NCBI RefSeq assembly: GCF_965641715.1 | Contig: NZ_OZ282453.1 | Strand: one strand, 5' to 3' | DNA length: 64,000 nt | DNA from: Escherichia coli | Lineage (GTDB): Bacteria; Pseudomonadota; Gammaproteobacteria; Enterobacterales; Enterobacteriaceae | Shown here: piece after piece, positions 58,418 to 64,000 of the stretch | Position numbering within the stretch: the first letter of the stretch is position 1 | Layout of the letters: each line of letters begins with the position of its first letter | Made by a program: the position numbers and the translations under genes | The notes under the pieces: model-generated | Told to the model about the DNA's origin: nothing | The model's database searches: none | The model's input: the letters and a program-made list of their open reading frames with translations, nothing else

Positions 58418-58708
58418 CTATTCCATCAACTGATTACTTAATGCCGGGTTGGCTTGAATCAAACGCATCAATTTTAGTTCGGCACTTGAAGGCTTCACGC
58501 GTCTGGATTCCCATTCCTTTACCATGGCGACTGATACGCCCAAAACCCGGGCGAAATCATCGATTTTTAATCCTGTCCCTTTTCGTAACTGCTCAATTTC
58601 GGTACAGGACGTTGTTCTGTGCGTCAGGGTAATTTTCTGCGTTTCATCTTTAAAAACAATCTGTTCCAGGCTGCTCAACAGCTCATGCATTGGATCTTTA
58701 TATTCCAT
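58418..58708 (-). CDS. yiaG: XRE-family helix-turn-helix protein YiaG, 96 aa
   Basis: Cro/C1-type helix-turn-helix (LRKGTGLKIDDFARVLGVSVAMVKEWE). Confidence 0.85.
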   Translation of the reverse strand: MEYKDPMHELLSSLEQIVFKDETQKITLTHRTTSCTEIEQLRKGTGLKIDDFARVLGVSVAMVKEWESRRVKPSSAELKLMRLIQANPALSNQLME

Positions 58709-59141
58709 TGAAAACTCCTCAAATCACACTGCGGGATCGTGAATTGCATCGAAGCTCATTAAGAATAGTCGGGAAAAGCAGACACAGCGGGGTGAAGTCA
58801 GGGCATGCTCTGGCTATGATTCGATTCAGCCAGTCATTTAGCGTGACTTATAGCCACCTAACGATCTGATAAATGCCGATATATCTCTTACCACTCCTGG
58901 TTTGTAAAGATTTCGAAAATCTAACCTTCTGCGAAGGCGTAAATCTCTGGCTACAAAAAAGGCAACGGCAATATCATTTTTTAACAATGAAACAACAAAT
59001 TAACCTTGTTTCATTTTCTCCATGATTTTACCAGGAAGATTACGTAGAAAGGGTATCCTGCAAGCCTGTCCTGGACTATCCTTGTCACGTCAGACACGCG
59101 TGTGTCGTTGTGCGCTTTTTTTGGGTGAAAGGAGTAAGAAA

Positions 59142-59852
59142 ATGGCGACAGGAAAGTCCTGCTCTCGCTGGTTTGCGCCTCTTGCGGCGTTATTAATGGT
59201 AGTTAGCCTGAGTGGGTGTTTTGATAAAGAAGGCGATCAGCGTAAAGCGTTTATCGACTTCCTGCAGAATACAGTGATGCGTAGCGGTGAACGTCTACCA
59301 ACCCTGACTGCCGATCAGAAAAAACAGTTTGGTCCTTTTGTCTCTGATTACGCGATTCTGTATGGTTATTCTCAGCAGGTGAATCAGGCGATGGATTCCG
59401 GTCTGCGCCCGGTTGTAGACAGCGTTAACGCAATTCGCGTACCGCAGGATTACGTTACGCAAAGCGGTCCGCTGCGTGAAATGAATGGTTCGCTGGGTGT
59501 GCTGGCGCAACAACTGCAAAATGCGAAGTTGCAGGCCGATGCTGCGCACTCTGCGCTAAAACAGAGTGATGACCTGAAACCGGTCTTTGATCAGGCATTC
59601 ACCAAAGTGGTAACGACGCCAGCTGATGCATTGCAACCGTTGATTCCGGCGGCACAAACTTTCACGCAACAACTAGTGATGGTTGGAGACTACATTGCCC
59701 AACAAGGTACTCAGGTGAGCTTTGTAGCAAATGGCATCCAGTTCCCGACTTCACAGCAGGCAAGTGAATATAACAAACTGATTGCGCCATTACCGGCACA
59801 GCATCAGGCGTTTAATCAGGCCTGGACTACAGCAGTTACTGCAACCCAATAA
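59142..59852 (+). CDS. yiaF: DUF3053 lipoprotein YiaF, 236 aa
   Basis: Start refined to ATG 59142 with SD aaaggag; lipobox LSGC. Confidence 0.85.
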   Translation: MATGKSCSRWFAPLAALLMVVSLSGCFDKEGDQRKAFIDFLQNTVMRSGERLPTLTADQKKQFGPFVSDYAILYGYSQQVNQAMDSGLRPVVDSVNAIRVPQDYVTQSGPLREMNGSLGVLAQQLQNAKLQADAAHSALKQSDDLKPVFDQAFTKVVTTPADALQPLIPAAQTFTQQLVMVGDYIAQQGTQVSFVANGIQFPTSQQASEYNKLIAPLPAQHQAFNQAWTTAVTATQ

Positions 59853-59857
59853 AGAGT

Positions 59858-59886
59858 AAAAGCCCGAGCGATTATCGGGCTTTACT
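59858..59886 (+). terminator. Terminator hairpin after yiaF
   Basis: Stem agcccga / tcgggct with a 7-nt loop, followed by ttt. Confidence 0.5.
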
Positions 59887-59901
59887 CCACGCAGTCGCGG
59901 C

Positions 59902-60876
59902 TTAGTCCGCGACGTGCGGATTCACACAGTTCTTCTCAACCTTTCCTTGTAACGCATCAATCAAATTATCCACGGCACAGGCGGCCATGCCATAACGCGT
60001 CTCATGGGTGGCAGATCCAATATGCGGTACTGCGACGACGTTGGCCATTGAGAGCAACGGCGAATCTACGGAAAGTGGCTCTTGTTCGAAGACATCCAGC
60101 CCGGCAGCGTGAATTTCGCCTTTCTGCAATGCAGCAATCAGTGCATTTTCATCAACCACCGGGCCACGTCCGGCATTAATGAATATGGCGGAGGATTTCA
60201 TTTTGGCGAATTGTTCTGCGCCAAATAGATGATACGTCTCATCAGTTAACGGCAGGATCAGGCAAACGAAATCTGACTCTTGTAACAGTGTATCCAAATC
60301 GCAGTAGCGGGCGTTGAAGCGTTCTTCTGCTTCTTTATGGTGGCGGCGCGCGTTATAGAGGATGGGCATGTTGAAGCCAAAGTGCGCACGTTGTGCCAGC
60401 GCCATACCGATCCGTCCCATCCCGACAATGCCCAGTGTTTTATGGTGAACGTCAGTGCCGTACCAGTCCGGGCCTATGCTCGCGGTCCATTCGCCTGCTT
60501 TTACCCGTTCTGCTACCTCCACAACCCGACGAGCGGTAGACAACACCAGCGCCATCAGCGTATCGGCGACGGTTTCTGTTAATACGGTTGGCGTGTGCAT
60601 CAGCAGAATTTTTCGGGCGGTAAGCGCATCGACATCAAAATTGTCATAGCCGACGGAGATCGTTGATGTGGCACGCAGTTTCGGCATTTTTTCCAGCAAT
60701 GCGGCATCTACATTCTCGTTTGAACCCAGTAAACCTTCAGCTTCTGCAAAAATTGCTGCATTTTGATCGACGGTTTGTGGGCTGAGGTTTGCCACCTGGT
60801 GAACGGTGAAATGCTCTTGCAGGCGTTGCAGTAAATCATCAGGTAAGGCTTTGTAGAGGATAACGGACGGCTTCAT
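59902..60876 (-). CDS. ghrB: Glyoxylate/hydroxypyruvate reductase B, 324 aa
   Basis: Start refined to ATG 60876 ([16 protein letters not shown]); D-2-hydroxyacid dehydrogenase family with GMGRIG nucleotide-binding motif. Confidence 0.92.
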
Positions 60877-60979
60877 GCTTCTCTCCATTCACTGATAAGG
60901 CGATCACCTTAGCCTGAAATATGATGAAGGAAAACTGAAGAATGCCAGGTGATTTCTGCATCACCTGGCATGAAAGGGA

Positions 60980-61639
60980 TTACAGCGGGCTTAAGGTAAT
61001 TTCTACACGGCGGTTTTGCGCCTTACCTTCTGCGGTGCTGTTGCTGGCGATTGGGTTAGCCGGGCCAAGGCCCTGAGTACGGATGCGGCTGGCGTCCACG
61101 CCTTGGGTGATCAACGCGCTGGCAACGGAATCCGCACGTTGCTGGGAGAGACGCATGTTCAGGTCGTGACCACCCGTGCTGTCGGTATAACCAATCACGT
61201 TAACCGCCGTTTTCGGATACTCTTTCAGTACCATTGCCACGCCGGTCAGGGTGTTAGCGCCCGCCGGTTTCAGGGTCGCGCTGCTGCTGTCGAAGGTCAC
61301 ATTGTTCGGCATATTGAGGATAATGTTATCCCCGCTGCGGGTTACGCTAACACCAGTGCCGCGCATTTTGTCACGCAGCTTCGCTTCCTGCACATCCATG
61401 TAATAACCCACGCCGCCGCCCAGAGCTGCGCCTGCTGCTGCGCCAATCAGCGCGCCTTTACCGCGATCTTTCTTCGAAGAAGAGAGCGCACCAATACCCG
61501 CGCCCACGAGAGAGCCCAGACCTGCGCCGATAGCAGATTTACCTGCTTCGCGTTCGCCGGTGTAAGGGTTAGTTGTGCAGCCAGATACCGCCAGAGCGCC
61601 ACTCACTACGGCGGCAATAAGATAAACACGTTTCTTCAT
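60980..61639 (-). CDS. yiaD: OmpA-domain lipoprotein YiaD, 219 aa
   Basis: Lipobox VSGC, Gly-rich region, C-terminal OmpA-like peptidoglycan-binding domain. Confidence 0.9.
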   Translation of the reverse strand: MKKRVYLIAAVVSGALAVSGCTTNPYTGEREAGKSAIGAGLGSLVGAGIGALSSSKKDRGKGALIGAAAGAALGGGVGYYMDVQEAKLRDKMRGTGVSVTRSGDNIILNMPNNVTFDSSSATLKPAGANTLTGVAMVLKEYPKTAVNVIGYTDSTGGHDLNMRLSQQRADSVASALITQGVDASRIRTQGLGPANPIASNSTAEGKAQNRRVEITLSPL

Positions 61640-61791
61640 TGTTAATCCTTAATAACCTTTTTATTCTTTGCCACGGGTTCCGTGGCGGGAGATTATGCCG
61701 CGTGAACATGAAGATTATTCCTGGGAATACTCGGAAATTTGTAAGTAATATTTAACTGCTCAATACATCTAACCTTTCAGGAGTCTTCGGT

Positions 61792-64000
61792 TTGGCCAAC
61801 TCATCCTCACGATATTCCGTTCTGACTGCCGCCCATTGGGGGCCCATGCTGGTTGAAACCGACGGCGAAACCGTGTTTAGCTCGCGTGGCGCGTTAGCCA
61901 CAGGAATGGAAAACTCCTTGCAGAGCGCGGTTCGTGACCAGGTTCACAGCAATACGCGGGTACGATTTCCAATGGTGCGCAAAGGCTTTCTCGCGTCACC
62001 GGAAAACCCGCAAGGCATTCGTGGGCAGGATGAATTTGTTCGCGTGAGTTGGGATGAGGCGCTGGATCTTATTCACCAACAACATAAACGCATTCGTGAG
62101 GCTTATGGTCCGGCATCGATTTTTGCTGGTTCCTACGGCTGGCGTTCAAACGGCGTGCTGCATAAGGCCTCGACATTATTACAACGCTATATGGCGCTGG
62201 CAGGCGGTTATACCGGGCATCTGGGGGATTATTCGACCGGCGCGGCACAGGCGATCATGCCGTATGTCGTGGGTGGTAGTGAAGTTTATCAACAGCAGAC
62301 CAGTTGGCCGCTGGTGCTGGAACATAGCGATGTCGTGGTGCTGTGGAGTGCTAACCCACTCAATACGCTGAAAATTGCGTGGAATGCATCCGATGAGCAG
62401 GGGCTTTCTTACTTTTCTGCACTGCGTGACAGCGGGAAAAAGCTGATCTGCATTGATCCAATGCGATCGGAAACCGTCGATTTCTTTGGCGATAAAATGG
62501 AGTGGGTGGCACCGCACATGGGCACCGATGTTGCGCTGATGCTGGGGATCGCCCATACGCTGGTGGAAAATGGTTGGCACGACGAAGCGTTTCTGGCGCG
62601 TTGCACCACAGGTTATGCCGTCTTCGCCTCTTATTTGCTGGGCGAGAGTGACGGAATAGCGAAAACCGCCGAATGGGCAGCAGAGATTAGTGGTGTTAAC
62701 GCAGAGAAAATCCGCGAGCTGGCGGCTATTTTCCACCAAAATACCACCATGCTGATGGCTGGCTGGGGAATGCAGCGCCAACAGTTTGGTGAGCAAAAAC
62801 ACTGGATGATCGTCACGCTGGCGGCAATGTTGGGGCAAATCGGCACACCCGGCGGCGGTTTTGGTCTTTCTTATCATTTTGCCAATGGTGGTAACCCCAC
62901 GCGGCGTTCTGCGGTGCTCTCTTCCATGCAGGGCAGCTTGCCGGGTGGCTGCGATGCGGTGGATCAAATACCTGTTGCCCGCATTGTTGAAGCACTGGAA
63001 AACCCCGGTGGCGCATATCAACACAACGGTATGGACCGACATTTCCCGGATATTCGTTTTATCTGGTGGGCGGGCGGTGCCAACTTTACTCATCATCAGG
63101 ATACCAATCGCCTGATCCGTGCCTGGCAAAAACCGGAGCTGGTGGTGATCTCTGAATGCTTCTGGAAGGCGGCGGCAAAACACGCGGATATCGTTCTGCC
63201 TGCGACTACCTCTTTTGAGCGTAATGATCTCACCATGACCGGTGATTACAGTAATCAGCATCTGGTGCCGATGAAGCAAGTGGTGCCGCCACGCTATGAA
63301 GCGCGTAATGATTTTGATGTTTTTGCCGAGTTAAGTGAACGCTGGGAGAAGGGCGGTTATGCACGTTTTACGGAAGGAAAAAGTGAGCTGCAATGGCTGG
63401 AAACGTTTTATAACGTTGCCCGACAGCGCGGGGCAAGCCAGCAGGTTGAATTGCCGCCATTTGCTGAGTTCTGGCAAGCCAATCAGTTAATTGAGATGCC
63501 GGAAAACCCGGACAGCGAGCGGTTTATTCGCTTCGCTGATTTTTGCCGCGATCCGCAGGCGCATCCATTAAAAACCGCCAGCGGTAAGATTGAAATCTTC
63601 TCGCAGCGTATTGCCGATTACGCTTATCCGGATTGCCCGGGGCATCCAATGTGGCTGGTGCCGGACGAATGGCAGGGCAATGCCGAACCGGAACAGTTAC
63701 AGGTACTTTCTGCTCATCCGGCGCATCGTCTGCACAGCCAGCTGAATTACAGTTCTCTGCGCGAATTGTACGCGGTGGCAAACCGTGAGCCTGTCACCAT
63801 TCATCCTGACGATGCCCAGGCGCGCGGCATACAAGATGGCGATACTGTTCGGCTGTGGAACTCACGCGGGCAAATTCTTGCCGGAGCGGTCATTAGCGAG
63901 GGAATTAAACCTGGCGTGATTTGCATTCACGAAGGGGCATGGCCGGATCTGGATTTAACCGCTGACGGTATTTGTAAAAACGGCGCAGTGAACGTGCTGA
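61792..64000 (+). CDS. bisC: Biotin sulfoxide reductase (molybdopterin oxidoreductase), 5' part only; continues beyond the window
   Basis: Frame open from 61792 to the window end, so absent from the ORF track; translation from TTG 61792 reads (M)[28 protein letters not shown]..., matching recalled BisC. Confidence 0.85.

Follow-up and report, generated by a model that had tools for sequence, protein, structure and literature searches.

At the end of the 64,000-nt stretch of Escherichia coli DNA analysed here (the window), a plus-strand reading frame that resembles bisC, the gene for biotin sulfoxide reductase, opens with TTG at position 61792 and runs into the window edge. This raises the question of whether bisC truly begins at a codon of this kind and, if it does, whether the codon is kept by selection or by chance. 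The TTG start is already known for bisC, from reference annotation and published ribosome profiling. Our analysis agrees with both, and adds a family-wide comparison of the start codon.

Identity and extent of bisC in the window

Translation of the window showed that the frame stays open from TTG 61792 up to base 64000. Using the O157:H7 and MG1655 annotations, which give a full-length bisC of 2334 nt and 777 aa, we found that the window holds 2209 nt of the gene (codons 1–736 plus 1 base), while 125 nt, equivalent to 41 codons and the stop, are absent. The original prediction that bisC is cut by the window edge and missing from the open reading frame list was thus borne out, the list being one that omits frames running off the window end.

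Despite the 41 missing C-terminal residues, the protein scored 1046.4 bits against the TIGR00509 bisC_fam profile (curated cutoff 1017.55), with BisC residues 13–736 aligned to profile positions 1–729 of 772. It scored under the cutoffs of the TorA models (769 vs 909 and 728 vs 1465) and of the DmsA model. Molybdopterin_N, Molybdopterin and Molydop_binding domains are present in the order found in the BisC / S- and N-oxide reductase subfamily. Among solved structures, TorZ (7l5i, E = 8.5e-268) and Rhodobacter DMSO reductase (1eu1, E = 1.5e-236) gave the best matches. In the alignment with the latter, the query motif gdyst pairs with gdyst of 1eu1_A (chain residues 145–148), which includes Ser147, taken here to be the molybdenum ligand seen in DMSO reductase structures. 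BisC is a cytoplasmic molybdenum (bis-MGD) enzyme, and it has been described as the cytoplasmic reductase of biotin sulfoxide and free methionine-S-sulfoxide (PMC11572973).

The gene order yiaF, ghrB, yiaD, bisC is common to the window, MG1655 and O157, with yiaD divergent from bisC. A scan of species-representative genomes returned 80 further loci from about 25 Enterobacteriaceae genera; in this set of 81 sequences, window included, an N-terminal motif check identified yiaD as the divergent neighbour in 63. Matches to the region were found in 5422 of 5426 complete E. coli genomes and, the partial match in NZ_CP040643.1 aside, the underlying features were always ‘bisC: biotin sulfoxide reductase’ and ‘yiaD’. 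The best complete-genome identity was 99.4% over 61500–64000, which places the window in a separate E. coli lineage. Taken together, positions 61792–64000 are almost certainly the 5′ 95% of an ordinary, TTG-initiated E. coli bisC.

Four of the 5426 genomes contained no match, and another nine covered less than 80% of the query. In NZ_CP040643.1 (strain BE104), only the yiaD-proximal 18% of the query was matched, over a feature annotated as ‘hypothetical protein’; this strain appears to have lost bisC through disruption or deletion. Beyond the window end, bisC and the convergent yiaC share 32 nt at the 3′ end of bisC in reference genomes (L001 4095–4126; MG1655 3714061–3714092). Elsewhere in the open reading frame list, yiaF appears as a 276-aa frame (59022–59852, plus strand), compared with an annotated K-12 gene of 711 nt (236 aa). 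The real yiaF start is probably the internal MATGKSCSRWFAPLAALLMVVSLSGC, with a lipoprotein-type signal, and the extra length is an artefact that comes from opening the frame at the earliest start codon downstream of a stop.

Table 1. Coordinates of features in and upstream of the window's bisC (nucleotide positions in the window, or BisC residues)
Feature	Position	Strand	Basis or remark
Sigma-70-like promoter match, predicted (TTGCCA, 17 nt, GATTAT)	61668..61696	+	Consensus scan
In-frame TAA closing the frame upstream	61753..61755	+	13 codons before TTG
Shine-Dalgarno AGGAG	61779..61783	+	Read from sequence; 8 nt before TTG
TTG initiation codon, decoded fMet	61792..61794	+	Annotation, TetRP, comparative alignment
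Internal ATG, Met19	61846..61848	+	54 nt downstream of TTG; 2006 K-12 annotated start, now rejected
Internal ATG, Met39	61906..61908	+	Downstream start candidate, rejected
Ser148 codon, GDYSTGAAQ motif	62233..62235	+	Aligned with Ser147 of 1eu1_A
Molybdopterin_N PF18364	residues 12–52		Pfam search
Molybdopterin PF00384	residues 56–517		Pfam search
Molydop_binding PF01568	residues 636–736		Pfam search; cut by window end

Evidence for initiation at TTG 61792

The plus-strand start region reads caggagtcttcggtTTGgccaac, within the longer stretch tttcAGGAGtcttcggtTTGgccaactcatcctcacga, with TTG at 61792–61794 in both. The distance between AGGAG and TTG is a normal Shine-Dalgarno spacing. Reading back from TTG, the 12 codons that separate it from the in-frame TAA contain no ATG, GTG or TTG, in keeping with the earlier statement that there is no in-frame ATG upstream. 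The start predicted from the letters was then compared with RefSeq annotation, ribosome profiling of K-12 and family alignments, and all three agree on TTG 61792.

In current RefSeq annotation, the start is this same TTG. The MG1655 gene (b3551, NP_418007.3, NC_000913.3 complement(3714061..3716394), 777 aa) has ttg as its first codon, and K-12 BisC, aligned from there, is identical to the window protein at 725 of 736 residues (differences at 11 residues and at 33 of 2209 nt). Across 61640–61860, 221 nt that span the intergenic and start regions, the window and MG1655 are identical. The PGAP coding sequence of O157:H7 strain Vac_07.1 (2334 nt, 777 aa) starts at locus base 1793, which corresponds to window position 61792, and the same TTG is annotated in four further E. 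coli strains, picked because their start regions differ from that of the window.

Initiating ribosomes of K-12 have been mapped by tetracycline-inhibited ribosome profiling (TetRP; Nakahigashi et al. 2016, PMC4909307). Row 52 of Table S2 in that study lists a new bisC initiation site at a TTG codon 54 nt upstream of the 2006 start. TetRP depth was 78.6/80.1/91.1 at this TTG and 0/0/0 at the 2006 ATG (PMC4909307 Table S2), in an entry that carries the code ‘6. nt’ and was listed without manual inspection by its authors (PMC4909307). The profiled strain was K-12, whose start region is identical to that of the window strain. The 2014 record U00096.3 moved the bisC start by the same 54 nt on independent grounds (PMC4909307 Table S3). 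No N-terminal peptide of bisC is given in Table S2 of PMC4909307, and the TRAINSPOTTER supplements (PMC13245402) contain no bisC entry.

Homology to relatives sets in early in the protein. The TIGR00509 profile matches from its position 1 at BisC residue 13 and the Pfam N-terminal domain from residue 12, and alignment with the solved structures 7l5i, 1eu1 and 1dms opens at residues 7–10. Similarity to BisC, TorZ and DorA thus starts at residues 7–13 and, therefore, a downstream start would cut into the conserved N-terminal domain; initiation at Met19 or Met39 would remove the conserved VLTAAHWG segment.

These data bear on three other placements of the start. The first takes ATG 61846 (Met19) as the initiation codon and the TTG as in frame by chance. 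ATG is the usual start codon, and this is the position used by the 2006 annotation (GenBank U00096.2), the only one to do so and since superseded. Against it, TetRP depth is nil at this ATG and about 80 at the TTG, and the bases that precede it (ttgggggccc) hold no Shine-Dalgarno sequence at a workable distance. The codon aligned with Met19 encodes Ile, Val or Leu, not Met, in Citrobacter and Salmonella, and the VLTAAHWG segment that would be deleted is aligned to family profiles and solved structures. We consider a Met19 start very improbable. Met39 was likewise rejected as a start: it lies inside the Molybdopterin_N match and the region aligned to solved homologues, and it is Leu in L004, one of the 81 sequences.

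The second placement combines two sites, so that BisC would be made in two forms, from TTG and from an internal ATG (Met19 or Met39). Dual start sites have been reported for some other genes (Nakahigashi et al., PMC4909307), but the 2006 bisC ATG carries no TetRP signal and no second bisC candidate is listed (PMC4909307 Table S2). Neither Met19 nor Met39 is conserved, and a shorter BisC would be without part of its N-terminal domain. We give this possibility as little weight as a Met19 start.

The third moves initiation further upstream, to the CTG that directly follows the TAA (61756) or another non-canonical codon. Very low-level initiation at CTG is possible, and nothing closes the frame between this CTG and the TTG; however, the CTG has no preceding Shine-Dalgarno sequence and the TetRP peak is at the TTG. 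The 12 intervening codons show no conservation as protein: the in-frame upstream stop of other genera lies 4 to 73 codons before the start (only 4 codons from the TTG in L036) and the upstream translation is not conserved. Such an origin seems to us remoter still than the two preceding ones. Initiation at TTG 61792 is thus the reading we retain.

Within E. coli, the start region varies little. An identical 61-nt segment is found in 4162 of 5404 complete E. coli genomes, and the sampled variants change only the AGGAG–TTG spacer (T/C at 61784, 61785 and 61788) or codon 2 (61795–61797), which is GCC (Ala) in the window and K-12 and ACC (Thr) in O157:H7 Vac_07.1. AGGAG is invariant in the Escherichia alignment.

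These findings leave the understanding of BisC and of translation initiation unchanged; their practical weight lies in annotation. Pipelines that list only complete open reading frames miss bisC here, and those that prefer ATG shorten it by 18 codons, as the K-12 annotation did until 2014. A 2012 study of ribosome-binding sites used the ‘pre-AUG’ region of bisC (PMC3310771); it seems to have taken the wrong region, that before ATG 61846, and so to have inherited the 2006 annotation error.

The BisC N-terminus and the region upstream

Placing the start at TTG 61792 also fixes how BisC relates to its exported homologues. DorA (1eu1, 1dmr) and TorZ (7l5i) belong to the same fold family as BisC, align with it end to end (E 1e-236 to 1e-268) and have in common with it the GDYST motif with the Mo-ligand serine. 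They differ in that DorA and TorZ carry an N-terminal Tat signal, whereas BisC carries none and the upstream stop leaves no room for one: its N-terminus contains no twin-arginine (RR) motif, and the frame is closed 13 codons upstream. In the alignment with mature DorA (chain 1eu1), BisC residue 10 pairs with residue 8; in those with the 823-residue DorA chains, which retain the signal peptide, BisC residue 7 pairs with residue 47. From these alignments, BisC would begin where the mature periplasmic enzymes DorA and TorZ begin, because it has no Tat export signal. A mature-type N-terminus and an upstream stop fit a cytoplasmic protein without such a signal, as judged from alignment.

Upstream of bisC, a consensus scan found a sole sigma-70-like match on the plus strand, and a weak one (1 vs 0.3 expected). 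Its GATTAT lies in a GATTATG that is invariant in 23 genus representatives, and may just as well serve the divergent yiaD as its −10 element (CATAAT). GATTATG is one of the blocks conserved over about 23 genera between 61691 and 61757, together with AAAATTCC and TTTGTAAnnAACATTGAAC; the second of the three, in E. coli, forms the palindrome TATTCCTGGGAATA at 61716–61729. Presumably the blocks serve as promoters or regulator sites, whether of bisC, of yiaD or of both genes.

A candidate upstream open reading frame from ATG 61709 to TAA 61755, encoding MKIIPGNTRKFVSNI, was rejected. Its ATG is absent in most genera, the TetRP list of intergenic starts has no nearby entry, and the conservation is at the DNA level.

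On the minus strand, the yiaD side, the inverted repeat GCCACGG-gtt-CCGTGGC (61670–61686) forms a hairpin that is kept across genera with co-varying arms. Among 34 distinct sequences, 95% of cells pair and three of the six pairs have changed on both sides, while versions slid by 1–3 columns pair in only 20–63%. Read on the yiaD strand, 25 cells are G·U pairs that would be A·C mismatches on the bisC strand, so that single-base changes keep pairing (G·U) on the yiaD strand only. The repeat follows the invariant CATAAT (61692–61697, minus strand) by about 6 nt, and the yiaD mRNA may therefore begin with this stem-loop. The hairpin may mark the 5′ end of that mRNA, and it is unrelated to the bisC start. 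It has no match in Rfam, and an Rfam search over 58500–64000 returned nothing except a chance sR60 match (E = 0.078).

Retention of a weak start codon across Enterobacteriaceae

At the position aligned to the start of E. coli bisC, 76 of the 81 sequences have TTG, 4 have GTG (L024, L033, L035 and L080), 1 has TTA (L004) and none has ATG; every sequence carries GGAG 5–10 nt ahead of this codon. We used as a neutral control 13 four-fold degenerate sites that have T in the window, taken from the same gene and the same taxa. T was kept at these sites in 28% of other species on average and in 51% at most, and four-fold divergence from the window is 0.43–0.68 outside Escherichia. That 75 of the 80 other species keep TTG, against 28% at control sites, reflects constraint and not shared ancestry, and the weak TTG start codon itself is thus constrained. 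This is a modest addition to what is known of bisC.

Whether ATG is avoided relative to GTG is a separate matter. At least three independent switches to GTG against none to ATG give about p = 0.09, assuming roughly equal rates of UUG>AUG and UUG>GUG change (PMC5622118). With only these few events (at least three), we do not claim significant avoidance of ATG over GTG.

The only sequence among the 81 without a canonical start codon is L004 (labelled Escherichia coli SCPM-O-B-8794, NZ_JAATUR010000010.1), in which TTA stands at the start position (1501–1503) ahead of an intact 777-codon frame, with AGGAG kept. Possible reasons for this TTA are that expression was lost recently, that the base was misread in sequencing, or that translation begins at Met19.

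At the E. coli start, the 30S subunit would bind AGGAG, which would position the ribosome so that the initiator tRNA reads UUG 61792 as fMet. The initiator Met would then probably be removed, since residue 2 is Ala, which methionine aminopeptidase is known to favour at this position. Of the three main start codons of bacteria, UUG is the weakest. It is also rare, accounting for 258 of 19,210 reconstructed gamma-proteobacterial starts, and stronger Shine-Dalgarno sequences tend to accompany sub-optimal start codons (PMC5622118), a trend matched by the invariant AGGAG beside the bisC TTG. Selection may keep the TTG and the strong Shine-Dalgarno sequence together so that BisC is made at a fixed and probably low level; that TTG has persisted for so long suggests a BisC output that is tuned and not driven to its maximum. 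That the codon is an actively maintained throttle, not a neutral quirk, is a reading we put forward tentatively, as possible but short of probable. If it is true, higher BisC synthesis may be harmful, for example through a drain on molybdenum cofactor, or expression must stay low but reliable. The family-wide retention of TTG adds a clean, if small, case to the weak start codons known to be conserved.

Parallels are offered by cya (UUG) and infC (AUU), E. coli genes whose weak non-ATG starts limit expression. For bisC, unlike these two, no autoregulatory loop is known or indicated, and there is no conserved RNA structure around the start: an RNAalifold consensus of 79 distinct sequences, from −45 to +39 of the start, revealed none, and the folding z-scores of the individual sequences had a median of +0.45. 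Neither RNA structure nor a translated upstream frame thus lends support to a more elaborate mode of regulation. What bisC has in common with cya and infC is a sub-optimal start codon that is conserved between species.
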